Below, piece after piece: positions 4,556-59,411 of a stretch of DNA of 64,000 nt. The notes under the pieces are model-generated. The model was not told the DNA's origin. It did no database searches and saw only the letters and a program-made list of their open reading frames with translations. The translations under genes and the position numbers were made by a program. This DNA comes from Candidatus Omnitrophica bacterium UBA6253 (GTDB lineage: Bacteria; Omnitrophota; Gorgyraeia; Gygaellales; Profunditerraquicolaceae). The stretch covers positions 116,547 to 180,546 of the forward strand of contig DJVP01000012.1 in assembly GCA_002441245.1 (NCBI GenBank), given 5' to 3'. Every line of letters starts with the position of its first letter. Position 1 is the first letter of the stretch.

Positions 4556-5638
4556 TTATTTACCTATAACCCTGCTGATCTTATCCCCGTAAAGCCTTAA
4601 TATATCGTTATAGGTAACCAATAAGGCTATTGTAATCATCAGGGTAAAACCAACATTATTAATTACCTGCTCTGCCTTAATCCCCAGCGCCTTCCTCCTC
4701 AATTTTTCCAAACCCAACAAAAAAATATGCCCCCCATCAAGGATAGGCAGCGGCAAAAGGTTGAATATTGCCAGGCTCACGCTTAAGACCGCAACCAAAT
4801 GCATAACAGCAATTAAACCCAATTTCGCTGTTTTAGAAGTAATAAAAAATATCCCCAGCGGACCGGTCACAGAATCACGCATGGAAATCTTACCGCTGAT
4901 TAATCTCCATAGCCCCCTATAAGTCATAACAGTCAAATCTATGGTTTTCTTAATTCCAAGATAGCCCGATTCAAAGAATCCGTGCCTAACCTCAATAGTT
5001 TCATCAAAAGGAGAGATGCCTATAATCCCCAAGGAGCGTTTTTCCCCTATTTCATCACCTAAGATTTTATCTTTAATCAATACCTTAAATTTTAACTCCT
5101 TATTATCACGCAAAACCGAAAGCTCCACGCTCTCTTTAACTTTTCTTTTCTGGATCTGCAGCTGCAGGTCCTCCCATAAGTTAACCTTCTTGCCATCTAC
5201 AACAATAATTTTATCCCCTACCGCCAAACCGGCTTCTTTAGCTCCGTAACCGTCTATTAAACCGCCAACCTTAGTAGTCAGGCTTGGATAACCCGTAAAA
5301 AGAATACACCAGAAGAATAAAAAACCAAGTAAATAGTTCAAGAACGGGCCAAAAAAGATAATCTGGAATCGGCTGCCAATACTTTTGGAAAAATACTCAT
5401 CGGCCTTCCCTTTATATTCCGACTGGCTGTCCCCGGCCATCTTCACATACCCCCCCAGAGGGATCAGGCTTATGCTATATTCAGTATCATTTTTTTTCTT
5501 CTTAAAGACCTGCGGCCCAAACCCTAAAGAAAAATTCTCCACACGCACGCCATTTTTCCGTGCGGCGATGAAATGGCCAAATTCATGCACAATAATAAGC
5601 AGGCTTAAAATTAAAATAAAAATAAGAGTGGCAATCAT
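4556..5638 (-). CDS. rseP: RIP metalloprotease RseP (site-2 protease, PDZ-containing)
   Basis: HEFGHFIAARKNGV zinc motif, central PDZ-like region and C-terminal LPLPILDGG motif. Confidence 0.85.
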   Translation of the reverse strand: MIATLIFILILSLLIIVHEFGHFIAARKNGVRVENFSLGFGPQVFKKKKNDTEYSISLIPLGGYVKMAGDSQSEYKGKADEYFSKSIGSRFQIIFFGPFLNYLLGFLFFWCILFTGYPSLTTKVGGLIDGYGAKEAGLAVGDKIIVVDGKKVNLWEDLQLQIQKRKVKESVELSVLRDNKELKFKVLIKDKILGDEIGEKRSLGIIGISPFDETIEVRHGFFESGYLGIKKTIDLTVMTYRGLWRLISGKISMRDSVTGPLGIFFITSKTAKLGLIAVMHLVAVLSVSLAIFNLLPLPILDGGHIFLLGLEKLRRKALGIKAEQVINNVGFTLMITIALLVTYNDILRLYGDKISRVIGK

Positions 5639-6795
5639 TATTGATTTAGGTTAGCTGCCAACATAGCAGCTTCTTCTCGGGCCCAGGCATCGGCAGCCAT
5701 TATATCCGGCAAAACAGGATCAGCTATCCTTCTGTGGCGCCGCATTACCTTTTCTATTATTTTCGGTATAGTCAAGAAGCTAATCCGTTTGTTTAAGAAA
5801 TTATTCACACTTATCTCATTGGCCGCGTTTATTACCGCAGGCATTGTCCCCAACTGCCTGGCTGCCTGGAACGCAAGGCCAAGACAAGGAAATTTTTCCA
5901 GGTCCGGTTTTTCAAAATGCAGCTTATTTAAACGGTAGAAATCTATCCCTGAAAGTTTATTAACCAGCCTCTCGGGATAAGATAAGGCATACTGAATAGG
6001 TATGCGCATGTCCACCGCCGAAAGTTGCGCCATGATCACGCCATCATTGAATTCAACCATAGAATGGATTAAGGATTCAGGATGAATCAATACCTTGATT
6101 TTCTCCGCTCCTAAATCAAATAAAAACATCGCTTCAAGCAACTCCAGCCCCTTATTCATCAAGGTTGCCGAATCAACGGTTATCTTTCTGCCCATCTTCC
6201 AGCGGGGATGATGCAACACCTGCTCCAGGCTAACCTTTTTAAATTTACTACGCGGCAGGCTCCTTAGAGGCCCTCCGGATGCAGTAAGATAGACCTGCCT
6301 GACATCAGACTGCTGAAAACCCCCCAGGCTCTGCCAGATAGCCGATTGCTCGCTATCAACCGGCAAAATATTAACCTTGTGTTTCTTTGCCATACGCATA
6401 ACTAAGGGGCCGGCCATCACCAAGGCTTCTTTATTAGCCAAAGCAATATCTTTACCGTTTTTAATCGCTGCAAGTAAAGGGCTAAGGGCAGCTGAACCGG
6501 TAATGGCAAACATTACCAAATCTATATCTCTATCCTTGACCATTTCGCCCAACCCCTTTTCCCCGCAAAAAATTTTTATTGATGAACCCAGATCAGAGCC
6601 TAATTCACAGGCTGCCTGTTCATCTCTTACGCATACAAACCGTGGTTTAAACTCTTTTATCTGCTGTTTTAGTTTAATAATATCGGTATTAACGCTTAAG
6701 GCCTCCACCTTGAATTGTCTTGGCAGACTCCTGACTACCGAAAGCGTACTTTGGCCTATTGAGCCGCTGGAACCTAAAACCGCAATTCTCTTCAT
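5638..6795 (-). CDS. dxr: 1-deoxy-D-xylulose 5-phosphate reductoisomerase
   Basis: N-terminal IAVLGSSGSIGQSTLSVV NADPH motif and full-length Dxr similarity. Confidence 0.9.
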   Translation of the reverse strand: MKRIAVLGSSGSIGQSTLSVVRSLPRQFKVEALSVNTDIIKLKQQIKEFKPRFVCVRDEQAACELGSDLGSSIKIFCGEKGLGEMVKDRDIDLVMFAITGSAALSPLLAAIKNGKDIALANKEALVMAGPLVMRMAKKHKVNILPVDSEQSAIWQSLGGFQQSDVRQVYLTASGGPLRSLPRSKFKKVSLEQVLHHPRWKMGRKITVDSATLMNKGLELLEAMFLFDLGAEKIKVLIHPESLIHSMVEFNDGVIMAQLSAVDMRIPIQYALSYPERLVNKLSGIDFYRLNKLHFEKPDLEKFPCLGLAFQAARQLGTMPAVINAANEISVNNFLNKRISFLTIPKIIEKVMRRHRRIADPVLPDIMAADAWAREEAAMLAANLNQ

Positions 6796-9881: not shown

Positions 9882-10922
9882 TTATCTGGTCTCTCGGGTT
9901 ACGATTGGAGTAATAGTACGCTCTTCTAATTTATCCGCGGAGGTCGCTTTAACCGGTATTACCTGTTTGCTATCCGGCAAATAATAGCGTAAGGTAAAAG
10001 TCCCGTCGGGCCTTAAATTAATCGGCTGCCCCTGCACTGTAACTTTTGCATCAGGTTCAGTAGCTCCATAGACAATTAGTTCACAATCTACTTTCATCCA
10101 AAAACTTCTCTCCTTAACTGCTTTTCTTACGGGGCTAGAGGATATGCCTGAGCTAAATAACCCCTGCTTTGTGCGTTCCTGCCAGGCACGGCCTACCGGG
10201 GAACTTTTACCCAAACCAAAACCCATACCATAAAGCCTGGCAAATATATCTTCAGGGATCATCCATTCTTCATCGGTAATCCACGACGGCCCATCCAATG
10301 GCGTCGAAACAACATTCGAACGTAAAATAGTAATAAACCTGCCATCGGTTAACATCAACCCCAAATCTACACACCAGGAACGCCCGGGGCCTGCCGTATC
10401 TATATACCAGCTGTTGGCAAAATCATTGTAATGAATATCAAAGAAACTATTGGCATTAAAACCGTTAAAGATAATATTAGTAACATCATAAACCCTTAAA
10501 ACCTTTTTTGCACGATAGAAATCGTCACCTAATTTACTCTTTAATCCTTCAATGGTTTGGTTCCTCATCTCCCAGTAAGTATGCAGCCAGCGCGGATCGC
10601 GTACCTGCAAAATAATCTTATCCTGGTCATAACAAAAAGGGAGATCCTGCAGTGCCGTACTTCTGGGGCGGGTATCTTCCGGATGAGAGAATTTTGTATT
10701 GACGGCAACAGTCTCCTGAAAACCAGGGATATCCCTAGATGCAGAAACCGCTGGACCAGAAACAGGAGATTTCTTTTTCTTCGGTTTTAAAGTTACGTTC
10801 TTGGAAGAGATGATTTTCTTTAGTTTGTCTTTTACTTTCTTTAATATTTTCATCAGCCCGCCTCCCTCTAATAAAAAAGGGGGATTATCTCCCCTTTTTA
10901 TAGAACAGTTACTTCCGTTCAT
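9882..10922 (-). CDS. Hypothetical protein with lysine-rich N-terminus (DUF4912-like partner of GH57?)
   Basis: Lies immediately downstream of the GH57 enzyme and has no catalytic motifs I recognise. DUF4912 assignment is from memory of typical GH57 neighbourhoods. Confidence 0.4.
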   Translation of the reverse strand: MNGSNCSIKRGDNPPFLLEGGGLMKILKKVKDKLKKIISSKNVTLKPKKKKSPVSGPAVSASRDIPGFQETVAVNTKFSHPEDTRPRSTALQDLPFCYDQDKIILQVRDPRWLHTYWEMRNQTIEGLKSKLGDDFYRAKKVLRVYDVTNIIFNGFNANSFFDIHYNDFANSWYIDTAGPGRSWCVDLGLMLTDGRFITILRSNVVSTPLDGPSWITDEEWMIPEDIFARLYGMGFGLGKSSPVGRAWQERTKQGLFSSGISSSPVRKAVKERSFWMKVDCELIVYGATEPDAKVTVQGQPINLRPDGTFTLRYYLPDSKQVIPVKATSADKLEERTITPIVTRETR

Positions 10923-10938
10923 TCAATCTCCCCTTATT

Positions 10939-11262
10939 TCATTTTTTAGTTACCCTTTGCAACTCATCTTTCAAGCCTTGATTTGCCAGCTGCTCTTGAA
11001 CTAAAATTCTTTTGTTTTCCTCAAGCGCTGCTTTTATCTCTTCAGCCTCTTTTTCCTTTGCCTTGACCTTTTCTTCTAAAGCTGACCTCTCCTGGGAGAA
11101 TTTGTTCATCTTTTCTTCAAGCTGAAGACGCGCAACCATCTCTTTATCGCGGCCAGCTTTTTGGCGCATCGCGTTATTGTATGAACTGATTGTCCCAAAC
11201 AATAATACCGACGATAATATAGCTAAGATAATTACTATGCGATTCTTTAAACCATTCTCCAT
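10939..11262 (-). CDS. Small membrane-anchored coiled-coil protein
   Basis: N-terminal TM segment followed by an E/K-rich heptad-like sequence. Sits directly upstream of an OmpA-family gene. Confidence 0.5.
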   Translation of the reverse strand: MENGLKNRIVIILAILSSVLLFGTISSYNNAMRQKAGRDKEMVARLQLEEKMNKFSQERSALEEKVKAKEKEAEEIKAALEENKRILVQEQLANQGLKDELQRVTKK

Positions 11263-36734: not shown

Positions 36735-38824
36735 TATAATAATTTATCTATTGCCGCAAGCACTTCCTCAGGAGTAATCTGCCTCATACAGTGCTTGGTT
36801 CGACATTTAGTTTTATAACAAGGCTGGCAATCCAGATTTTTATTAATCACAATGCAGTTCTTTCCTGGCGGAAGATGGCGGCGCGCATCAGTAGGCCCAA
36901 AGAGCGCGATAAAAGGAGTCCTTACCGCGGATGCGATATGCAAAGGCGAAGAATCTGCTGAAATAAACACATTGCATTTCTTGATCAGGGCAGCCAACTC
37001 ATTTACACTGGTTTTACCGCAGGCATTAATAATTTTGGTACCCTTAAGTGAATTTACGAGCATGTCAGCATAGACTAAATCCTGGGCAGTACCGGTAATC
37101 ACTACGCGTATATCGCGCAACCCCAAATCTTCACAAAGACGCATCAGGTATTGCTGCGGCCAAAGTTTGGTACTCCATCTCCTGGAAGCGCTAATATTGA
37201 TCCCCACTATTTTCTGAGCCTCGCTCAGCCATTGGGCGTTTAAAAGCTCATCCACGCGCTTTATATCTTCAGGAGACGGCCAAAGCTCAAGCGAATTATT
37301 CAAAAGGTCAATACCGAGCATTTTTAATATGCGAAACTGGTGCGTTACCGGGTCGATAAGCGGTTTTCCATCTTTAATGCGGTGCTGAAGCAAAAAAGAA
37401 AGCTTTTTGTTATCATAACCGTAGCAATTAACGCAGCCGCTCAGGTAAGAAAGTATATGGCTGGACCGGCTGTTCTGCAGGTCTATAACAATATCAAAAT
37501 TCTTTTTCCTTAAGACGCCTCCTATGCCCAATAACCCCTTTAGCCCCTTATCATTATTTTTCAAATCACACACCAATAGCTCATCTATATAAGGGCTTCT
37601 TAGCAATACATCTTTTGATTCCTCTCCGGTCAAAAAGCTTATCTTATAATTTGCTTGGGAAAATTTCTCCCAAACCGCCCTTAATGCAGCCGTGGAAAGG
37701 ATTATATCCCCTAGAGAGCTGAGCTTAATTATCAGAATCTTAAAATTACTCAAGGCATCACGGTAAACATCCAAGGTATTCTTAACCATCAACTCCACCG
37801 TATATTTTTCTTTAATCTTAACGTAGGCATTCTCTGCCAAATTCTGTGCTAATTGCGTATTTTCATAAATACGCAGTATAGCATCGGCCATGCTTTTATG
37901 ATCTGCTGGAGGAACTAATAGACCGTTTTTGCCATCTTCAATGATATCAATTACCCCGCCTACCTTAGTAGCTACCACCGGTACGCCGGAGGCTTGGGCC
38001 TCAACCACTACCCGGCCAAATGCCTCATGTGTTGTCGTAGCCAAAACCACCAGGTCCAGATGCGCCAGTATCCCAGGGATATCACGCTGTGTTCCTAAGA
38101 ATTCTGTGCAATGCCATAGACCAAGCCGTCGTACTAACACCTGTACTTCCTCCTTATACGCCTCCTTTGATGCCGGGGCATCCCCCACTATCCATATTTT
38201 TAACCGTGGTACAGTCCTTGAGATACGCGCCATAGCCTTAATAAAATGCAGGTGGCCTTTTAGAGGAGTGATCCTGCCGATAATCCCTACGTTAAACTCC
38301 TCTTTTCTCTTTGACTTAGGGTCAAGGTATTTAAACCTTTCCATATCCACGCTGCGCGGAACAAGCCTGATACGCTCATGAGGCACTGCAAAGTCTTCAA
38401 TCATATGCCGGGCAATCACGTTGCTTAAAACAATCACTCTCTTAGCCCAACCCATTACTAAACTAAAAAGATGCTTCTTATAGTAGCCATGACAAGTAGT
38501 TATAAATACGGCCTTGGTCCTACGGCAGGCAAAATAAGCAATCCATGCCGGCACGCGCGAACGGGCATGAACGATATCAATCTCCTCCTGTTTGATTATC
38601 CCTACTAGAATAGGGATTAATTTATATATAGAAAAAATTGATTTTTTATGTACTGCTAATGTGTAATGTTTGGCGCCGCATGCTTCAAGCTCTCCGACCA
38701 GGGCTCCGCCGGCAGAAACCACTACTACTTTATGCCCCAGGCGCACCAGATACTTGGACAAATCCAAGGTACCGGTCTCAACCCCGCCTACATTAAGTTC
38801 AGGCAATATTTGCAGTATCTTCAT
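36734..38824 (-). CDS. Fusion protein: GT4 glycosyltransferase (N-terminal) + GT9 heptosyltransferase (C-terminal)
   Basis: N-terminus ILQILPELNVGGVE (GT4), then from about residue 360 FKILIIKLSSLGDIILSTAALRAV (GT9). 696 aa. Confidence 0.75.
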   Translation of the reverse strand: MKILQILPELNVGGVETGTLDLSKYLVRLGHKVVVVSAGGALVGELEACGAKHYTLAVHKKSIFSIYKLIPILVGIIKQEEIDIVHARSRVPAWIAYFACRRTKAVFITTCHGYYKKHLFSLVMGWAKRVIVLSNVIARHMIEDFAVPHERIRLVPRSVDMERFKYLDPKSKRKEEFNVGIIGRITPLKGHLHFIKAMARISRTVPRLKIWIVGDAPASKEAYKEEVQVLVRRLGLWHCTEFLGTQRDIPGILAHLDLVVLATTTHEAFGRVVVEAQASGVPVVATKVGGVIDIIEDGKNGLLVPPADHKSMADAILRIYENTQLAQNLAENAYVKIKEKYTVELMVKNTLDVYRDALSNFKILIIKLSSLGDIILSTAALRAVWEKFSQANYKISFLTGEESKDVLLRSPYIDELLVCDLKNNDKGLKGLLGIGGVLRKKNFDIVIDLQNSRSSHILSYLSGCVNCYGYDNKKLSFLLQHRIKDGKPLIDPVTHQFRILKMLGIDLLNNSLELWPSPEDIKRVDELLNAQWLSEAQKIVGINISASRRWSTKLWPQQYLMRLCEDLGLRDIRVVITGTAQDLVYADMLVNSLKGTKIINACGKTSVNELAALIKKCNVFISADSSPLHIASAVRTPFIALFGPTDARRHLPPGKNCIVINKNLDCQPCYKTKCRTKHCMRQITPEEVLAAIDKLL

Positions 38825-40770
38825 AGTATTTTATCTAACCCTGCGCTTACCCGTAAGTTATCTTCAGGAAAACTTACCCTGGGATGATTCTGTAATATTT
38901 CTCTAATGAAGCCGGAGATTTCTTTAATTTGCTTTAAATATATATATCTTTTATCCTGATAATTTTTTAGAAAGCGTTGATGCTTCTTGCTAAGGCCGGC
39001 GGCCTTAAATACCACAACATATCTTTCTGCCATAACCGCCTCAGAGATCATCGATATACTCTCCGGCGAACTTATAATTATACTGCTTAAGCCTAATATG
39101 CCGCCAACTGCATCAGGATGGTTGTTTTCATTGGCAATAATTAAAAGCTTACAGCGCAAATAAGCCTCAAATTCTTTTTTAAGCACCTGCTCCACTTCCG
39201 GCGGCGTACGGCGGGAGGTAGAAAGAAGAATATCCGCGTTCAACTCTTCGGCAGATTGTTTAATTTGACCAATCAATCCTGTTATCGCCTGACGGCTAAT
39301 AGCAAACCCTTTACTATCGCCTCCAATTAATATGCCAATACAAGGATTAAGCAAAGGGCCTTTTAAGAGGCCGGACTTCTGCAATCTCCCTGATTTTTCT
39401 TTTAAATAATCCCCGTCAATTAAATTAAGCGCCCCCTCGGTCATTACCACATTTTTCTTATTTTGTGGCCTGTCATGCCGGGGGATAATCGCCAGATCAA
39501 ACTTTTTCAGGCTTAAGACAGCCGGCCGCATTACAATAACTGACTTGGCCTGGTTTGCTTTAGCCAATATATAATTTACAGCGCTCAATTTATCTCCCGC
39601 AGAAATAATAATATCGGGCTTAAGGTTGATTAAACCCTGCCAACTTTCACTGGTTAAGGCATAATGCAAATAACACAGGCAGCGATGGCATTGATACCTG
39701 CCGTTAAAAACAGCCATCCAGTTAAATATAACCCTGAACAGGCAGCTACGGAATTTCACCTCACAGATAGATAATGTAGATTTTATTCCCCGCCCTGATA
39801 ATTGCCGATTGACCAATTTAGCTACGCTTTCAGACTGATGGAGGTGGCCTGCCTTTCCATCGGAAAGGATCAATACCTCTTTCTCTTTACCGTATTTCCA
39901 GATTTTATAAGTCCAGAGATACTCATAGGGGTATTGCTGGATATACTTCTCATAAATATCAGCCAACCTCTGCAGGTTGTCATGCAGGTCATTTTGTGCG
40001 TCACCGCTTTTGGTTGCCACATAAACCTGGTCCAGAATAACTTTAGTATGAGGACCTTTTACGCGCGTATAAAAAACAGGGATTATGGAACAGCCGTATT
40101 TCAAAGCCAGCTTCACCGCTCCGGTAGACATAGAGGCGGATTTACCAAAAAACCTTACGATCTCCCCCTTTTTGCCGCCCTGATCAGTAGTCATCCCGAT
40201 TGACTGGTTATTTTTAAGGACATCAATCAACTCCCGCAATCCCCCTTGCTTATGGATAAGCTTTGCCCCTTGTTTAAGCCTATAGGTATTAAGCAGGTCA
40301 TTTAACCGCGGGAATCCCTGATCTCGCACAAATAATATAAAAGGGAACCCGAGGTTTGCGCAGATGATATTGGAAAGTTCCCAGTTACCTTCATGTGCGA
40401 TAAGAAAAATTACCCCTTTGCCTCTTTTAAAAGCCTCGCCAATATAATGCCTGTTTTCAATATGGATATACTTTTCAAGATACCTCTTATTTATACGCGG
40501 GATAAAAGAAATCTCTATAAGGTTCTGGCCGAATGCCTGATAAACCTTGCGGGTTATCTTTGCGGCTAACCGAAAGTCTTTATTTATTGTCACGGCCTTC
40601 TTGATATTCGCGTAAGCGACCGCGCGATGCCGGGAATCAAAAAAATAGATAACGTCCCCCAGCCTCCTGCCCAAAAACAGGCTTGCGTTCAAAGGCAGCA
40701 AGAAAGTAAACAGGCTGGCGGCCTTAAAGAGAATACAGCTTAAGTAATCGGCGATCAAATTCTGCTTCAT
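38821..40770 (-). CDS. Fusion protein: LpxL/HtrB-type lipid A late acyltransferase (N-terminal) + ELM1-like GT-B domain (C-terminal)
   Basis: N-terminal half resembles lauroyl/myristoyl acyltransferases (about 290 aa). C-terminal half begins LILSDGKAGHLHQSESVAKL, like the ELM1-family N-terminus. Confidence 0.6.
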   Translation of the reverse strand: MKQNLIADYLSCILFKAASLFTFLLPLNASLFLGRRLGDVIYFFDSRHRAVAYANIKKAVTINKDFRLAAKITRKVYQAFGQNLIEISFIPRINKRYLEKYIHIENRHYIGEAFKRGKGVIFLIAHEGNWELSNIICANLGFPFILFVRDQGFPRLNDLLNTYRLKQGAKLIHKQGGLRELIDVLKNNQSIGMTTDQGGKKGEIVRFFGKSASMSTGAVKLALKYGCSIIPVFYTRVKGPHTKVILDQVYVATKSGDAQNDLHDNLQRLADIYEKYIQQYPYEYLWTYKIWKYGKEKEVLILSDGKAGHLHQSESVAKLVNRQLSGRGIKSTLSICEVKFRSCLFRVIFNWMAVFNGRYQCHRCLCYLHYALTSESWQGLINLKPDIIISAGDKLSAVNYILAKANQAKSVIVMRPAVLSLKKFDLAIIPRHDRPQNKKNVVMTEGALNLIDGDYLKEKSGRLQKSGLLKGPLLNPCIGILIGGDSKGFAISRQAITGLIGQIKQSAEELNADILLSTSRRTPPEVEQVLKKEFEAYLRCKLLIIANENNHPDAVGGILGLSSIIISSPESISMISEAVMAERYVVVFKAAGLSKKHQRFLKNYQDKRYIYLKQIKEISGFIREILQNHPRVSFPEDNLRVSAGLDKIL

Positions 40771-42848: not shown

Positions 42849-43571
42849 TTAATCAGATGACATAAAGGAAAGATTGCGTTCGATGAAATCAATCAATTCC
42901 TGCTGAATATCAGCCGAGATATTGCGGAATTCCACGCCGAAACCCGGATACTCATGGGGCTGGACTTCTTTATCCGGGACCCACACAACAGCTGCCTCAA
43001 TTACAAGTTCTTCTTTCTTTGGCGCCAGCCTCATCTTAAGTATTACCTCATCCCCCAGCTTAAAATTATCGCAACCGAATATAAAGGCACCCACCGCGCT
43101 CAAATTAAGTATATCAACCTTAAGGCAGCTTGGCGAAGTCGAAGATTTGGATTTTAACTCTACTTTTAAATCAATGGGCAGGCGTTTAAACCTGCGGCGC
43201 AGCTGCATCTTTTTGATATCCTCAATAGCTTTGTCTTCCTTAAAACTATTAACCGCTAAATCCTCCGTGGCATAAACCTCAATAACCCTGTCCATGCCGG
43301 AAACCGCAAATACTCCCCTGAGGTGCGCCGGAATATTTAAAAGCTTCATCCTACCCTTGCTGTTGACCACTTCTTTATAAGCAATAACTACAACCGAGAT
43401 CCCCATATAATCAATACCTTCAATATCCTCCAAATTGCAGAGTATATCCGTATATCCATCACGCAGGCATTGCCCAACCACCTCTACAAGATTAGCGGAA
43501 TTAACGTCTATGCGGCCGGATAAATCCATAATGATTATATAATCTTTCTGCCTTAATTTTATCTCTAGCAT
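42849..43571 (-). CDS. STAS (anti-sigma-factor antagonist-like) - PilZ fusion protein
   Basis: N-terminal STAS-like 110 aa. C-terminal RRRFKR...NLSAVGAFI...GFGVEF matches PilZ RxxxR and (D/N)xSxxG motifs. Confidence 0.6.
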   Translation of the reverse strand: MLEIKLRQKDYIIIMDLSGRIDVNSANLVEVVGQCLRDGYTDILCNLEDIEGIDYMGISVVVIAYKEVVNSKGRMKLLNIPAHLRGVFAVSGMDRVIEVYATEDLAVNSFKEDKAIEDIKKMQLRRRFKRLPIDLKVELKSKSSTSPSCLKVDILNLSAVGAFIFGCDNFKLGDEVILKMRLAPKKEELVIEAAVVWVPDKEVQPHEYPGFGVEFRNISADIQQELIDFIERNLSFMSSD

Positions 43572-43948
43572 GTTAATTTAAATTCAATGGCAGGATTTAA
43601 TTTTAAGGTATTGTGCGCAGGGCAGTTTTTAATAAACTCCAGCAATGCCCTCTGCCTGCGTTCATCGATTGAGCAGGATTTTAAATCTATCTCCACATTG
43701 ATCTGCCTGAAAGATAACGGAGATTCCTTGGAAAGCTCAGCAGAGACATTGATCTTGAAGTTTTCCAGGTTTAACTTTGAGCCTTCGGAGTATTTACGGA
43801 TATATACCCCGATACAACTGCCTAACCCGGTCAGAAGCGCATCCAGCGGGGTTAATCCTTTTCCTTTTGCGTCCACGACAAATTCACTTTCGCCTGATTT
43901 AACGCTAAATGCCAAATCCTGATTATGCACAACTTCTATCTTATACAT
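43565..43948 (-). CDS. OsmC/Ohr-family peroxiredoxin-like protein
   Basis: LLTGLGSC and CPAHNTL conserved Cys motifs. Confidence 0.7.
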   Translation of the reverse strand: MYKIEVVHNQDLAFSVKSGESEFVVDAKGKGLTPLDALLTGLGSCIGVYIRKYSEGSKLNLENFKINVSAELSKESPLSFRQINVEIDLKSCSIDERRQRALLEFIKNCPAHNTLKLNPAIEFKLTC

Positions 43949-44003: not shown

Positions 44004-44480
44004 TTAATAAGCCCTGGGCCTTGCCTGTTTCTGCCAAGAATCAAAAAGCTTTATATTTTCTCTTACTAATACTGCCGGAGTAATCCTGATTCTATTTTTT
44101 GCCAACTTCCTTAAATCCAGATTAGAAACAGGCAATTCATTAAAACCATACCTCTTGGCATCTTTGATTGCGCAGCCAAAAACAATGCGCGAGATTCTTG
44201 CCCAATGGCAGGCCGCAAAACACATCGGGCACGGCTCACAAGTAGAATAAATAACGCAACCGGATAAATCAACTCTTTTAAGCCTCTTACATGCCTGCCG
44301 GATTGCCGTTATTTCAGCATGAGCCGTAATATCGGTATTCTTCCAGACAAGATTATGGCTACAGGCAATAACTTTATTGCCTTTTACAATACAAGAGCCA
44401 AAAGGTGCCTGGCCTTTCCTTGCCCCTTGCGCGGCCTTCTCTATGGCAAAACGCATAAATTTTATATCCTGATTTTTCAT
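44004..44480 (-). CDS. CDA-fold deaminase, guanine deaminase (GuaD)/TadA-like
   Basis: TAHAEITAIRQACK...YSTCEPCPMCFAACHWAR closely parallels the B. subtilis GuaD zinc motifs. Confidence 0.7.
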   Translation of the reverse strand: MKNQDIKFMRFAIEKAAQGARKGQAPFGSCIVKGNKVIACSHNLVWKNTDITAHAEITAIRQACKRLKRVDLSGCVIYSTCEPCPMCFAACHWARISRIVFGCAIKDAKRYGFNELPVSNLDLRKLAKNRIRITPAVLVRENIKLFDSWQKQARPRAY

Positions 44481-44487
44481 TAGCCTT

Positions 44488-45399
44488 TCATAATATTTTA
44501 CTCATTAATAACCCTAGTATAAAGGACAAAGAAGTCCCCAGGTTAACCAAAATAGTCATTGCGCACATCTTTTGAAGCAACAGACTGTCCCTATAAGCAC
44601 CCTTGAGCATTAAAGACGCCAATATTACGGCAATAATCAATACCGGAAAATAGAAAAATGCGCTCTCTACAGGGAAACCCTTTGCTAAAGCGATAAAAAA
44701 ACTAACTCCTGCGCAAACAACAAACAACGCATATAGAAAAGCGCCTCTTTCTTTGCCTATGCGTACTAATAAATTATTTTTAGACGCCTCTCTGTCCACC
44801 TGATAATCCGGATATTCATTGATCAATATTATATTTACCACTGCACAGGCAATAGGCAACGATACAAAAACAGCCAAAATATCAAAACTGGAAACTTGAA
44901 TATAAAATGCGGCATTTACAGCCAAAAAACCAAAACTATAAGCAATAAATATCTCGCCTAATCCCCGGCTTACCCAGCGTAGAGGCGGCTTAGAATAGAA
45001 TAACCCGCAGATTACCCCTGAAGCACCCAGCAAAAGAGTCCATTTGCCGGTTTTAAAATAAAACTGCAAGATTGTTCCTATTAAAAAGGCCAGCAGGATA
45101 ACCGCATAAGACAGGACCCCTACCTTGCTTTCGGGAATTAATTTCTTAACCAATACCTGGCTGCCGCCGCTAAATGGGCTTTTTCCTAAAACCGCCGAAA
45201 GACGGTCTTCTTTGATATCGTAAATCTCGCCACTATAATGCGCGGCTAATTGAATAAGGATCGAACCAGCTAAACCCAAGAAAAAAACTGCCGGACTAAA
45301 TTTACCCGTAAGGCGTTGCGCAAGTAATGCGCCCAAAATATATGGCAGGATGACTACGCTTAAAAACGGTATGCGCGAAAGCAAAATCCAATATTTCAT
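44488..45399 (-). CDS. UbiA-superfamily prenyltransferase (MenA-like)
   Basis: Polytopic membrane protein with two Asp-rich motifs (YDIKED and DYQVD). Confidence 0.65.
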   Translation of the reverse strand: MKYWILLSRIPFLSVVILPYILGALLAQRLTGKFSPAVFFLGLAGSILIQLAAHYSGEIYDIKEDRLSAVLGKSPFSGGSQVLVKKLIPESKVGVLSYAVILLAFLIGTILQFYFKTGKWTLLLGASGVICGLFYSKPPLRWVSRGLGEIFIAYSFGFLAVNAAFYIQVSSFDILAVFVSLPIACAVVNIILINEYPDYQVDREASKNNLLVRIGKERGAFLYALFVVCAGVSFFIALAKGFPVESAFFYFPVLIIAVILASLMLKGAYRDSLLLQKMCAMTILVNLGTSLSFILGLLMSKIL

Positions 45400-45404
45400 A
45401 TTTT

Positions 45405-45830
45405 TTATTTTCTTATAAAATCCTGATAAACCGCCAGGATTATCACAATAGCAGAACTGCTGAAAATGAAAAAATAATTTATGGCATCTTTGTTTGAACG
45501 CAGGCGGCAGAGCATTATGCGCAAAAATTCTCTGTCGCCGGCATCTAAAATCTGGCTGTTCGATATCTTCTTATGGATTTGGTATCTTTCCAATTCCTGG
45601 CGCAAGATTTTATCCTGTCTGAATTTATATAGAAAATATAGAAAGAATCCTGCTACACCCAGATACCAGAAAAACTTCGGCCAGAATAATCCAAAGGGCA
45701 AAACAAGATTTACCAGCCTGACAGAGATTGTGGCAATTATTCCGACAAGAAGAAATAGCCAGGAGACAGTAGTGTCCCTGCAACTTGCGGAAGCCTTACA
45801 ATTAATGCATTGCGTTTTAGGTTTAAACAT
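45405..45830 (-). CDS. Hypothetical membrane protein with N-terminal CxxC...C motif
   Basis: CINCKASASC then 3-4 TM segments. No recognisable family. Confidence 0.4.
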   Translation of the reverse strand: MFKPKTQCINCKASASCRDTTVSWLFLLVGIIATISVRLVNLVLPFGLFWPKFFWYLGVAGFFLYFLYKFRQDKILRQELERYQIHKKISNSQILDAGDREFLRIMLCRLRSNKDAINYFFIFSSSAIVIILAVYQDFIRK

Positions 45831-45833
45831 ATA

Positions 45834-46004
45834 TTATTGAGTAAGGTCCTTATTGTTGCTCCTGCGCAAGGCCTTAACCATGCGCTCATAAGCCTCCAGG
45901 GCTGAAGCCCCTTCAGTAAGATGGTCAAAACAAACAGCCGCATACCCCTTACGGTTTTTAATCTTAAAAATCTGCACTTTTAAGTGGCCGATTTTCTCTA
46001 ACAT
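45834..46004 (-). CDS. Candidate small ORF (56 aa) absent from the ORF track
   Basis: ATG...TAA ORF MLEKIGHLKVQIFKIKNRKGYAAVCFDHLTEGASALEAYERMVKALRRSNNKDLTQ fills a 190-bp same-strand gap. Plausible beta-alpha-beta composition. Confidence 0.3.
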   Translation of the reverse strand: MLEKIGHLKVQIFKIKNRKGYAAVCFDHLTEGASALEAYERMVKALRRSNNKDLTQ

Positions 46005-46017
46005 TTTATATTAAGGA

Positions 46018-46767
46018 TTAACTAACTTCAATGGCTGCGCGAGCATCAAATGGATTAGTGCGCATAGCCAAAGAAAATAAATACGGATAATCTGCCTTAA
46101 GATGTTTCATGTAAGAGACCCATTGCATTATAAGCAGCCGATAAGAACGCTTCAAGTCATTGGAGAGATGCTCATAATCCTTCTGGGTAAGATTTTTTAA
46201 ATCCACACGGCCTTCCAACTCTTCAGTAAGATGGAATACCGCCCAGAGCAAATCAGTAAATGACTCATGTTCCAGAAGATTCTGGTTTTCCAGCAGGCCA
46301 AGCATAAAATTACGCTTTTTAATCAAGAAATCTTTTAATCCCTGCAGGTCGCCTTTTTTATAATCAATTTTATAATCATAGTTTCCAAGGTCCTTCTCCA
46401 AACGGTTAAACTCAGATGCTGCCCATTCTGAGCGTACGCTTAATTTATCAGATATAGAGCACCCCTGCATGTCAAAAACTATGCAGAATTTAAGCAGCTC
46501 CTTGCCTACTTCACTAAAAAATACACCAATGACCATATTCATTTTCTTAAATAAAGCCTGTTTCTCCCGATAAGTCAAAAGGTTATGCATCACCAGCGTA
46601 ACTAGAAAAACCTCCAGAAACACAAAACCGATATCCCCAATAAGATAGATAAATATGTGCCGTGCGTCCCGAAAAATCAAGAAGTGGATATAGTAAACCG
46701 ATGCTGAGAGTATAATTAAAACAACCCCCAAGATAACCTGCCAGTTAAATATCTTATTAAGCACCAT
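46018..46767 (-). CDS. Hypothetical membrane-anchored protein (2 N-terminal TM + cytoplasmic domain)
   Basis: ORF only. No motifs recognised. Confidence 0.4.
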   Translation of the reverse strand: MVLNKIFNWQVILGVVLIILSASVYYIHFLIFRDARHIFIYLIGDIGFVFLEVFLVTLVMHNLLTYREKQALFKKMNMVIGVFFSEVGKELLKFCIVFDMQGCSISDKLSVRSEWAASEFNRLEKDLGNYDYKIDYKKGDLQGLKDFLIKKRNFMLGLLENQNLLEHESFTDLLWAVFHLTEELEGRVDLKNLTQKDYEHLSNDLKRSYRLLIMQWVSYMKHLKADYPYLFSLAMRTNPFDARAAIEVS

Positions 46768-46770
46768 AAC

Positions 46771-47214
46771 TTATTCTCCTATATCCTCATTCCATAAATT
46801 AGGTTTGCGCTTAATAAACTGCCGCATTAATTGTTTGCAATCAGCCGAATCTAAATTGACGATCTTCACTCCCCTTCTTCTGGCATAGCTTTCCGGACCT
46901 TTAAAAGTTTGATTTTCCCCGATTACCACCTTAGGTATCTTATAAAGCAGTATCGCGCCCATACACATATCACAGGGAGAAAGCGTGGAATAAATAATAC
47001 ACTTTTTATAATCTGCGCTTTTTAACCTGCCGGCATTCTCCAGACAATCCATCTCGGCGTGCAAAACCGCCGAACTCTTTTGTATGCGCCTGTTATGGCC
47101 CCTTGCTATAATTAACCCATCCTTAACCAATACCGCACCTATAGGAATTCCTTGTTCGGCTAAACTTTTTTTAGCTTCTTTAATCGCCTCCTGCATAAAC
47201 TTTTCCATAAGCAC
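46771..47214 (-). CDS. CDA-fold deaminase, yeast Fcy1-type cytosine deaminase-like
   Basis: GHNRRIQKSSAVLHAE...YSTLSPCDMCMGAILLYKIPKVVIGEN...WNEDIGE parallels yeast cytosine deaminase along its length. Confidence 0.7.
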   Translation of the reverse strand: MLMEKFMQEAIKEAKKSLAEQGIPIGAVLVKDGLIIARGHNRRIQKSSAVLHAEMDCLENAGRLKSADYKKCIIYSTLSPCDMCMGAILLYKIPKVVIGENQTFKGPESYARRRGVKIVNLDSADCKQLMRQFIKRKPNLWNEDIGE

Positions 47215-47685
47215 CTATCGCGATATCTTGATTATTTTATATTTAAGCAGCCCTGCTGGAACCCTTATCTCCACAACTTCGTTTTCTTTATGCCCCAGTA
47301 AGCCTTCACCCACCGGAGAACTCACTGAAATCTTGTTCTGGTTATAATCCGCCTCAAGCTCCGAAACCAATACATATTCCATCTCTTCTTCCGTATCCAT
47401 ATCTATCAGTTTTACTCTGGCACCGATTAAAACTTGATCCTGGGGTATATCTTTATCAAGTATGCGCACCCGGGAAAGCTTCTCCTCTAATTCAACGATC
47501 TGCTTTTCATTATGCCCCTGGGCATCCTTAGCCGCGTCATACTCGGCATTCTCGCTGATATCGCCATGCGCCCGGGCCTCGCCTACTGCCTTAGAAAGCT
47601 GCCGGCGTTTAACCGTCTTCAAATATTCCAGATCGCTAACTAATTTCTCATAGCCTTCCTGGGTTAGATAGATATCCCCTGACAT
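47215..47685 (-). CDS. greA: Transcription elongation factor GreA
   Basis: LTQEGYEKL...GDISENAEYDAAKD motifs. Start chosen at MSGDIYLTQ; the ORF could extend to 47715. Confidence 0.85.
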   Translation of the reverse strand: MSGDIYLTQEGYEKLVSDLEYLKTVKRRQLSKAVGEARAHGDISENAEYDAAKDAQGHNEKQIVELEEKLSRVRILDKDIPQDQVLIGARVKLIDMDTEEEMEYVLVSELEADYNQNKISVSSPVGEGLLGHKENEVVEIRVPAGLLKYKIIKISR

Positions 47686-47742
47686 ATTTGGCTCCTTTAC
47701 CCTGCAAAAGGGCATACCGGCCGCTTCCTTCCGGGCCGGATG

Positions 47743-56595: not shown

Positions 56596-58485
56596 ATGAT
56601 TTACGACAGGTTCCAGCAGGAAGCCATTAACCACATCAATAACGGCCACTCGGTAATCGTCTCAGCTCCAACCGGCGCAGGCAAGACCGTTATTGCCGAA
56701 CACATTATTTCTTCATGTATTGCAACTAAAGAATGTTCGGCAGGCGTAATCTACACCGCACCTATTAAAGCCCTCTCCAATCAGAAATTCCGAGACTTTC
56801 AAGGCCAATTTCAGGATAATATCGGAATTCTTACCGGTGATGTTTCCATTAACCCCCAGGCCCCGGTCTTGATCATGACTACGGAGATCTTCCGCAACAA
56901 AATACTGGATGAGCCGGAAAGCCTTAATAAATACTCCTGGATTATTTTTGATGAGATCCATTATATTGATAATCCCGAACGCGGCACGGTTTGGGAAGAA
57001 TCCCTGATCTTTCTCCCTAAGCATATGAATCTGTTGGGGCTGTCAGCAACTATTCCCAATATTAAACAATTCGCTTCCTGGATTGAATCCATACATAATA
57101 AACCTATCAAAGTAGTGATCGAAGAAAACCGGCCCGTGCCTTTGCATTTTCTTTTCCAGTGCCAGAATGAAATAGTGGATAAAATTGAACGCCTTAAGCG
57201 CCTGCGCTCAAGTAAGCCTAACAGGCTCAATTCGCTGGTCGATTACCTGCGCGGAAACGACGGATTACCGGCGATATATTTTGTCTTCAGCCGCAAGCGC
57301 GCTGAAGAATTGGCCCAAGACCTCTACGGATTTAAATTTTTAGATGCCAAGGAAAGCCGCGCAATCACCCAGATGTATGAAGATTTAATGGTGCGTTTTA
57401 ATCTAAAACATGAACAATCAGCGCAAATCCTTTACCCTCTGGTGCAGCGCGGGATCGCCTATCACCACGCAGGTATGCTGCCGACATTAAAAGAAGTAAT
57501 TGAAAGGCTTTTTACCAGCCGCCTGCTTAAGGTTATCTTTACCACCGAAACCTTTGCCCTAGGAATTAATATGCCCAGCCGTTCTGTTATGTTCGACGGC
57601 CTGCGTAAATTCTACGGTACCTATGTGCGTAATTTAAAAACGCGCGATTTCTACCAGATGGCCGGCCGTGCCGGAAGGCGCGGCATCGACAAGGAAGGAT
57701 TTGTTTATACACGGGTTAACCCGCAGAGGATAAATTTCGAAGAGGTTAACAGGATAATTTTCGGTAAACCCGAGGAGGTAAAAAGCCAGCTCAACACATC
57801 CTATGCCACCATCCTTAACCTTTACGAAAAATACCAGGAGGATTTATTTAAAATATATCCCCTATCTTTGCATTACTATCAATCAAATAAAAATGAACAG
57901 AAACAGGCATTAAACCTGCTGGATGCAAAGCTCAGACTATTAAAAGAATTAAATTATATCCATGAAGGAAAGCTTTCGGAAAAAGGCAAGTTCGCAAAAA
58001 CCGTTTACGGTTATGAATTGGTACTGGCGGAATTATATGACCAGAATATACTTGAACAGCTGGATGAATTCGAATTAGGGGTAACGGCCTCTGCGGTTGT
58101 ATTTGAGCCGCGCAAGAATCAACGTATGCCTACAGGCATATCCAAGTCTGCTCGCGCGCTCAAGCGCATCTGCGAAGAGAATTACAACCGGATAAAAGAT
58201 AAAGAACGCCGCTACAAAATTTACCCCTTCAGCAAACTCCCCTATTTTCATCTATGCTCAAGCATGGAGGCATGGCTGCGCGGGACAAACTTTGATAAGA
58301 CCCTACAGATGACTGATTGCGACGAAGGCGAGGTAGTGCGTTATTTCAGGATGAGCGTACAGGTTTTAAGGGAAATCTCACAGGCTCCGATTGCCTCATA
58401 CCTGCTTAAAGATAAAATAAAAGAAACCATCCGCGTGATAAACCGCGATATTGTTGACGCAGAAAAACAACTCCGCGAAGGCTAA
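56596..58485 (+). CDS. Ski2-like/DEAD-DEAH superfamily 2 helicase
   Basis: Q-motif F..QQEAI, motif I APTGAGKT, motif [26 protein letters not shown]-terminal arch/accessory region. Confidence 0.8.
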
Positions 58486-59411
58486 TCTAAGCTAAGATAA
58501 TCCTGGATTATTTTCTTGTGGTCAAAAGCAAAATCGAGCTTTTCCAGTTCCTGACGTTTTACCACCTTCAAGCCGGCCGCATCGTCACCGGCCTTCGGCT
58601 TTCCTTTTGCCTTGGCGATAAATACCGTACCGACGGTATGAAACCTGGGATCCCTCTTGGGATCCGAATAAGTATGGAACTGGCGTATCTCGGTGAGCTC
58701 CAGGTCCGTTTCTTCTTTTGCCTCCCTTTTTACCGCATCTTCAAGGCTCTCCCCGTAATCTACGAACCCCCCGGGCAAGGCCCATCCGAACGGAGGGTTA
58801 CTGCGCTTGATGATCACTATCCCTTCGGCCAGTTCGATGATTGCATCTACCGTAACATACGGACCGCCGGACAACTTTGTGGTTACATATTCCAAATATC
58901 CCAAAACCCCTTTATTAAAAACCGCAAATGCCTCCTGGTCATAAAGGCAGAAAATAATTTCTTTTAAAGAAGTATCCTCCTCCCGCAAAAGCTTTAATAC
59001 CTCCTGGGCCATAATCTTGGCGGATGCCAAAAGCGGAAAACCTCCAGTGCCGCATCCTAATGCCGGAAAAACAATGGAACTGATTTTTAATTCATTAGCC
59101 AGCGCCAACGCGCTCCTTGCGGCGTCACGGATTTTTACCTCATCGGTCTTAAAATCCATGCCCATGGTCACGGTATGAATTACATATCTTGCCGCCAGCT
59201 CCCCGGCAGTAGTTTCAACCGCCCCCCCTACCTTTATGGGAGATTTCTTCAACGCCTCTTCTTCAATGACCTTACCGCCCTTACGCTTGATTACACCAGC
59301 AACCCCTCCACCCATCAAAAGCTTATTATTTGCGGCATTCACAATCGCATCCGCCCTTGACTCGGTAATATCTCCCAACACCACCTTGATTTCCGTATTT
59401 TTAATCTTCAT
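58482..59411 (-). CDS. Macro domain (ADP-ribose binding/hydrolase) - NUDIX hydrolase fusion protein
   Basis: N-terminus [17 protein letters not shown]...GGGVAGVI...[10 protein letters not shown] is macro-like. C-terminal half carries the [30 protein letters not shown] box. Confidence 0.75.

Follow-up and report, generated by a model that had tools for sequence, protein, structure and literature searches.

Six consecutive genes at positions 44004-47214 of a 64,000-nucleotide stretch of DNA from Candidatus Omnitrophica bacterium UBA6253 (contig DJVP01000012.1; the whole stretch is referred to as the window) are, with a probability of about 0.8, independent genes that are neighbours within a variable slot; this slot belongs to a conserved array of co-directional housekeeping genes in a streamlined Candidatus Omnitrophota genome. 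In the order of transcription, they code for a putative cytosine deaminase (DeamC), an MJ1433-like membrane protein, a conserved protein of 56 residues (S56), a small membrane protein (M141), a prenyltransferase of the UbiA superfamily (UbiA), and a putative guanine or guanosine deaminase (DeamG). The gaps between them amount to 3–13 nucleotides. The initial annotation had seen in this grouping either a nucleobase salvage or detoxification island, or a pathway leading to a prenylated or modified nucleobase or a quinone-like metabolite. Neither idea survived the comparison with related genomes: the genes vary independently of each other, and the neighbourhood is not conserved. The grouping is neither an island nor a pathway: the genes became juxtaposed in one lineage, at a place of the syntenic backbone whose content varies. 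Each of the two deaminases, as judged from its sequence, probably works in nucleobase salvage.

Species-representative genomes were scanned with an alignment of UbiA, and the open reading frames (ORFs) of the 80 loci obtained were searched with all proteins of the window. Note that these are metagenome-assembled genomes (MAGs) and that the genes of the loci were called simply as ORFs and assigned with phmmer. The 28 Omnitrophota loci whose UbiA is at least 55% identical share the backbone TopA-XerC-KdtA-GreA-(slot)-STAS/PilZ-HAD-GDT1-LpxK-LpxL/Elm1. GreA, which lies directly upstream of DeamC, is syntenic in all backbone loci; it belongs to the backbone and to no unit with the six genes. The content of the slot was counted in 21 species-level loci with a complete slot, all ascertained through UbiA. 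S56 is present in about 20 of these loci, DeamG in 15, M141 in nine, DeamC in eight, and the MJ1433-like gene in six. All six genes are found together in two loci only (L009 and L015). DeamG is missing from the slot, which is the region examined, in six loci and DeamC in 13. At least six syntenic genomes contain UbiA but neither deaminase, and DeamG stands without DeamC in seven of its 15 loci. Furthermore, two of the loci found via DeamG have the order GreA-S56-DeamG-OsmC without UbiA (L092 and L094). UbiA and DeamG occur at the slot in every combination except the absence of both. The metagenome loci retrieved with the MJ1433-like protein display further gene combinations, and at least 12 architectures were seen across about 30 loci. 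Since the genes come and go independently among the relatives, we infer that no shared pathway connects them.

In a rough neighbour-joining tree calculated from KdtA, XerC and GreA, DeamC is restricted to essentially one clade, which implies a single insertion. The absences of UbiA, DeamG, M141 and the MJ1433-like gene are scattered over the same tree. The positive mark for DeamC in L092-L094 was disregarded, since it is the DeamG ORF that matched there. Insertions and deletions at the slot have the size of genes and leave the stop/start junctions intact; no repeats, scars or signatures of mobile elements are visible at these junctions. When the window is compared with its closest relative (L014, 9355-9420), the junctions on both sides of the MJ1433-like gene are clean, with stop and start separated by a few nucleotides (46004-46030 and 46760-46775). 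In L094, a gene for a chagasin-family peptidase inhibitor (Inhibitor_I42; 5588-6004) is found between S56 and DeamG, at the place that UbiA holds in the window. The slot therefore accepts unrelated genes.

The close homologues of the genes all stem from Candidatus Omnitrophota MAGs. More distant homologues were found in other contexts. In other Omnitrophota, homologues of DeamC that are 74–78% identical occur in three unrelated neighbourhoods, with no UbiA, second deaminase, GreA or salvage gene (upp, permease) nearby. For the MJ1433-like protein, 72 metagenome loci with an identity of at most 59% were inspected; the other five genes are never adjacent, and there is no recurrent neighbour. Among 52 UbiA homologues with 41–51% identity, which originate from other Omnitrophota, Syntrophales and other Thermodesulfobacteriota, Actinomycetota, Chloroflexota, and Asgard archaea, none has an adjacent deaminase. 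Thus, the full set is limited to two of the 21 syntenic loci, and outside of the lineage UbiA, DeamC and the MJ1433-like protein are found without the others. Adjacency of the six genes, as it would be expected of an operon, is not kept across lineages beyond the general synteny.

The tight packing of the genes has to be seen against the style of this genome. On the minus strand lie 63 of the 66 ORFs of the window, with minimal spacing. The co-orientation and close packing are thus genome-wide, and there is nothing specific about them in the six genes. The GC content of the six-gene interval (approximately 0.41) is unremarkable, given values of 0.39–0.46 across the window. Between 41.5 and 52.5 kb, 20 promoter-like sites were found as compared to 24.9 expected from shuffled sequences, with a sigma-70 consensus that may not fit Omnitrophota. 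Terminator-like sites are not in excess either (13 versus 11.3 expected), and no riboswitch or other Rfam family was matched in this region. Signals of these three kinds that would mark the six genes as a unit with its own regulation do therefore not exceed expectation. As a further trait of the region, all 2-kb bins from 1 to 64000 have a negative GC skew, and the strand bias and the gene density are extreme for 64 kb.

Several points weigh against the independence of the genes. Of the 21 UbiA-ascertained loci, 15 have DeamG adjacent to UbiA, and all eight slots that contain DeamC contain DeamG as well. In a distant member of the Omnitrophota (L045), S56 (10913-11092) directly follows UbiA in a different context, next to a gene of the IMPDH family and guaA; here, for the second time, the neighbours belong to guanine-nucleotide metabolism. 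The six genes probably share transcripts with their neighbours, and some co-regulation may exist. Finally, because UbiA, DeamG or the MJ1433-like protein served to find the loci, the frequencies are biased, and the absence of a gene from the slot is no proof of its absence from the genome.

The descriptive part of the initial annotation held up well. Two deaminases of the CDA fold indeed lie within 3.2 kb; both match Pfam dCMP_cyt_deam_1 (E-values of 2e-26 and 6e-27) and proteins of the PDB. The resemblance of one of them to Fcy1 up to the terminal W-x-EDIGE and that of the other to GuaD were borne out, and so was the MenA/UbiA-type prenyltransferase between them. The announced CxxC membrane protein is M141, the unannotated ORF of 56 codons is a real gene, and the protein with two transmembrane segments is the MJ1433-like protein, which has the domains MJ1433_N and MJ1433_C and two predicted N-terminal helices. 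DeamC and DeamG share an identity of only 31%, and the ORFs of the window include no further gene of the CDA fold.

A phmmer search against the PDB yielded a full-length match of DeamC to the yeast cytosine deaminase (yCD) Fcy1 with an E-value of 1e-42 and a score of 148 bits; the best TadA reached 89 bits, and GSDA/GuaD 53 bits. The identity to Fcy1 is 53% over 143 aligned residues, and the two sequences are colinear up to the final residue. Residues I33, N51, H62, E64, C91, C94, F114, W152, D155 and I156 of Fcy1 are kept in DeamC, and the only change among the known active-site residues is that of G63 to Ala. H52, E54, C81 and C84 of DeamC align with H62, E64, C91 and C94 of yCD, of which we take the His and the two Cys to be the zinc ligands and E64 to be the catalytic residue. 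Presumably, N51 and D155 of yCD contact the pyrimidine, and F114, W152 and I156 form a C-terminal lid. The W-x-EDIG motif is present in all 120 DeamC homologues listed, whose NCBI label is merely "nucleoside deaminase". DeamC would most likely act as a homodimeric zinc cytosine deaminase of the yeast type, converting cytosine to uracil and ammonia; it would also turn 5-fluorocytosine into 5-fluorouracil. The databases let DeamC begin with an ATG at 47208, which gives 145 residues, as compared to 147 residues from the GTG start. Literature searches on bacterial Fcy1 and horizontal transfer yielded nothing useful.

For DeamG, the best match in the PDB is the guanosine deaminase GSDA from the plant Arabidopsis (124 bits, E-value 6e-35, 50% identity over 113 residues), followed by the guanine deaminase GuaD from B. 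subtilis (102 bits, E-value 3e-28); the best TadA reached 80 bits. The alignment with GuaD runs from end to end: the C-terminal half of DeamG aligns with the end of GuaD, and the Tyr of the terminal RAY is paired with Y156. All 120 DeamG homologues listed end in Tyr, and HAE and PCPMC are found in DeamG and in 119 of these. At the position of Asp114 of GuaD (GFDD), DeamG and 115 of the 120 homologues listed have Glu (GFNE), which is a conservative change. In GSDA, the terminal Tyr caps the active site via a contact to N7 of the purine and is essential for efficient catalysis; GuaD and GSDA do not cross-react with each other's substrate (PMC9739398). The core of DeamG is closer to GSDA and its tail is closer to GuaD, and by its sequence the substrate may be either guanine or guanosine. 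DeamG would convert guanine to xanthine or guanosine to xanthosine, and its C-terminal Tyr would cap the active site above the purine N7. Public labels of the DeamG homologues are in conflict: JGI lists "tRNA(Arg) A34 adenosine deaminase TadA" or "guanine deaminase", and NCBI "nucleoside deaminase".

Both deaminases are new members of well-known families by their sequences, and both would serve nucleobase salvage or nitrogen scavenging, each on its own. One may ask whether they nevertheless belong together as a loose salvage or detoxification island, in which they are kept close for joint expression and the intervening genes are passengers. Two salvage-type deaminases with intact active sites, the strict co-occurrence of DeamC with DeamG at the slot and the confinement of the DeamC-bearing genomes to essentially one clade speak for such an island. 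However, one clade means one insertion event and no repeated co-selection, and DeamG does without DeamC in almost half of its loci and in L092-L094. Moreover, neither a second deaminase nor upp or a permease lies beside the DeamC homologues in other places, and in the annotated surroundings of the window neither a phosphoribosyltransferase nor a nucleobase transporter was seen. An island of this kind is therefore improbable.

It is still less probable that one of the two proteins, most plausibly DeamG, is the tRNA adenosine-34 deaminase TadA, a possibility for which the initial annotation had suggested a check. The NCBIfam model of TadA (NF008113) is the best match for both deaminases, JGI names many DeamG homologues TadA, and there is no other CDA-fold gene in the window that could take this role. 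TadA is essential, and hence it should be retained in all relatives, whereas each of the two genes is absent from the syntenic slot in many of them. Furthermore, the model gives 79 bits for DeamG and 71 bits for DeamC versus a curated cut-off of 150, and the PDB ranks GSDA/GuaD and Fcy1, respectively, well above TadA. The Tyr that ends the DeamG homologues is a hallmark of GuaD and GSDA (PMC9739398). Neither protein was classified as TadA, and the TadA label on the homologues of DeamG is probably wrong.

The UbiA protein matches Pfam UbiA with an E-value of 3e-23, and its only relative in the PDB is UBIAD1 (E-value 2e-7). The best NCBIfam models are those of MenA; the top score is 101 bits versus a cut-off of 264, and TIGR00751 gives 50 bits versus 102. 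The motifs G57-E58..D61..E64-D65 and N194-E195..D198...D202 are invariant across the homologues. The sequence is thus MenA-like, yet it is no recognised MenA equivalog. UbiA would be a MenA/UBIAD1-like intramembrane aromatic prenyltransferase and would contribute to a membrane prenylation unrelated to the deaminases.

In most of the 52 distant loci (L036-L087; for example L054:10001-12129), a gene for a radical SAM/SPASM protein directly follows the UbiA homologue: 43 cases were identified by clustering and 47 by tblastn. This NirJ2/AhbD-like gene is absent from the window. The partner protein has approximately 405 residues, and its gene begins within about 10 nucleotides after the UbiA homologue. 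It contains an N-terminal extension of about 65 residues that is hydrophobic by eye, and its sequence is up to 82% identical across phyla. The best NCBIfam models for it are NirJ2, AhbD and TIGR04053, all with scores below their cut-offs. The pair is strongly conserved, and a literature search found no function for the pairing.

S56 is a genuine conserved gene that occurs in about 30 species-level loci; a hidden Markov model matched it in nearly all backbone loci, with or without UbiA. It is also the most constant gene of the slot and sits after GreA even where UbiA is missing (L092:5826-5984, L094:5473-5628). Its 26 distinct homologues align without gaps and share the core IGHLKV..IFKIKNR.GYAAVCF.HLTEG...EAY.RMVKALRR. 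The family is tiny: an exhaustive search in 1.84 billion proteins found no more than 36 representative clusters. With few exceptions these are small proteins that stand alone, and two long matches contained no informative domains. An AlphaFold2 (AF2) model of S56 has a beta-beta-beta-alpha topology (pLDDT 67) and no fold match in the PDB (best E-value 1.3). A HicB/UPF0150-like fold, which had been suspected from the sequence, could not be confirmed. In M141, the C-x2-C-x5-C motif precedes the hydrophobic segments, and C8, C11, C17 and C108 are invariant among the homologues. The MJ1433-like protein has an identity of 67–78% in six syntenic genomes; it gave no match in the PDB or in the local Pfam search, and nothing useful on MJ1433 was found in the literature. 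Its AF2 model, predicted from a single sequence with low confidence (pLDDT 54), is all-helical. No significant match resulted when S56, M141 and the MJ1433-like protein were searched against Pfam (E-values up to 10), NCBIfam, PADLOC and PHROGs. A defence island was also considered; the only PADLOC match is that of the generic zinc-deaminase motif to a dCTPase model, and the idea was therefore dropped.

S56, M141 and UbiA might make up an as yet undescribed membrane prenylation module of Omnitrophota, whose acceptor would perhaps stem from guanine-nucleotide metabolism. We consider this very unlikely. UbiA-S56 lies beside DeamG in the window and beside the IMPDH-family gene and guaA in L045; if the module were real, the adjacency to a guanine deaminase would carry a meaning despite being dispensable. 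A pathway of all six genes, in which the deaminases supply or tailor the acceptor of UbiA and the membrane proteins assist, could appeal to the tight co-directional packing, to the MenA-like but unrecognised UbiA and to the guanine-nucleotide genes of L045, yet it is strongly disfavoured and the least probable reading of all, as UbiA and DeamG occur at the slot in all combinations but joint absence, UbiA is found with neither deaminase in syntenic genomes and pairs with the radical SAM/SPASM protein elsewhere, and the deaminase active sites are of the type that processes free bases or nucleosides.

Juxtaposition of independent genes thus accounts best for the locus, whose features are compiled in the table. 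The OsmC-like gene lies 55 nucleotides downstream of DeamG.

Features of the six-gene interval and its two flanks (positions refer to the window)
Feature	Position	Strand	Length and basis
DeamC, putative Fcy1/yCD-type zinc cytosine deaminase	46771-47214	minus	147 residues from the GTG start; PDB phmmer, residue mapping
MJ1433-like membrane protein with two predicted N-terminal TM helices and a helical domain	46018-46767	minus	249 residues; precomputed Pfam MJ1433_N and MJ1433_C
S56, conserved cytoplasmic protein	45834-46004	minus	56 residues; alignment of homologues and hidden Markov model
M141, small membrane protein with N-terminal C-x2-C-x5-C	45405-45830	minus	141 residues
UbiA-superfamily intramembrane prenyltransferase, MenA/UBIAD1-like	44488-45399	minus	303 residues; Pfam UbiA
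DeamG, putative GuaD/GSDA-type zinc guanine or guanosine deaminase	44004-44480	minus	158 residues
GreA, upstream edge of the conserved backbone	47215-47715	minus	NCBIfam GreA, 176 bits versus a cut-off of 145
OsmC-like protein, downstream flank, itself variably present	43565-43948	minus	Pfam OsmC, E-value 2e-16

The surrounding genes belong to housekeeping and to the synthesis of the lipopolysaccharide (LPS) core; they include TopA, XerC, KdtA, GreA, LpxK, an LpxL-Elm1 fusion, and GT4/GT9 transferases. The fusion (38821-40770, 649 residues) combines an LpxL-like lipid A acyltransferase with an Elm1-like domain, and its gene overlaps that of LpxK by 47 nucleotides. A second LPS-related fusion of 696 residues (36737-38824) joins a GT4 domain to a GT9 (heptosyltransferase) domain. 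At 58485-59411, a protein of 309 residues is encoded in which a Macro domain is fused to a NUDIX domain; this combination would suit the processing of ADP-ribose.

The locus illustrates clearly that, where a genome is streamlined and strand-biased, neither adjacency nor close spacing of genes is a sign of an operon. Probable functions, namely that of a cytosine deaminase and that of a guanine or guanosine deaminase, can be proposed for two families of Omnitrophota that are labelled "nucleoside deaminase" or "TadA". Beyond annotation, the importance of these results is small. For Omnitrophota, a host-dependent or necromass-consuming lifestyle has been proposed (PMC10066038); the scavenging of nucleobases fits this lifestyle and is unsurprising.

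Compared to known systems, both deaminases have the CDA fold and the zinc motif in common with TadA, from which they differ by scores at about half of the curated cut-off and by C-terminal regions that match Fcy1 and GuaD. UbiA belongs to the same fold family as MenA and UBIAD1 and has two acidic motifs at the expected positions, the first of them non-canonical. In MenA, the 1,4-dihydroxy-2-naphthoate polyprenyltransferase, the canonical first motif is N-D-x-x-D, whereas UbiA of the window contains G-E-x-x-D-x-x-E-D; it also remains far below every MenA equivalog cut-off, has no adjacent men or mqn genes, and the conserved partner of its family elsewhere is the NirJ2/AhbD-like radical SAM/SPASM protein. 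GuaD (PDB 1WKQ, 1TIY) and Arabidopsis GSDA (PDB 7DBF) have the CDA fold, HAE and PCxxC in common with DeamG; in both of them the final Tyr caps the active site at N7 of the purine, and DeamG ends in Tyr as well, albeit containing GFNE instead of the GFDD of GuaD. DeamC differs from Fcy1 of Saccharomyces cerevisiae (PDB 1UAQ, 1P6O) in its bacterial origin, in an N-terminus that is about 11 residues shorter, and in the Ala at the position of G63; the zinc ligands, the catalytic Glu, the substrate contacts and the residues of the lid are the same in both proteins.

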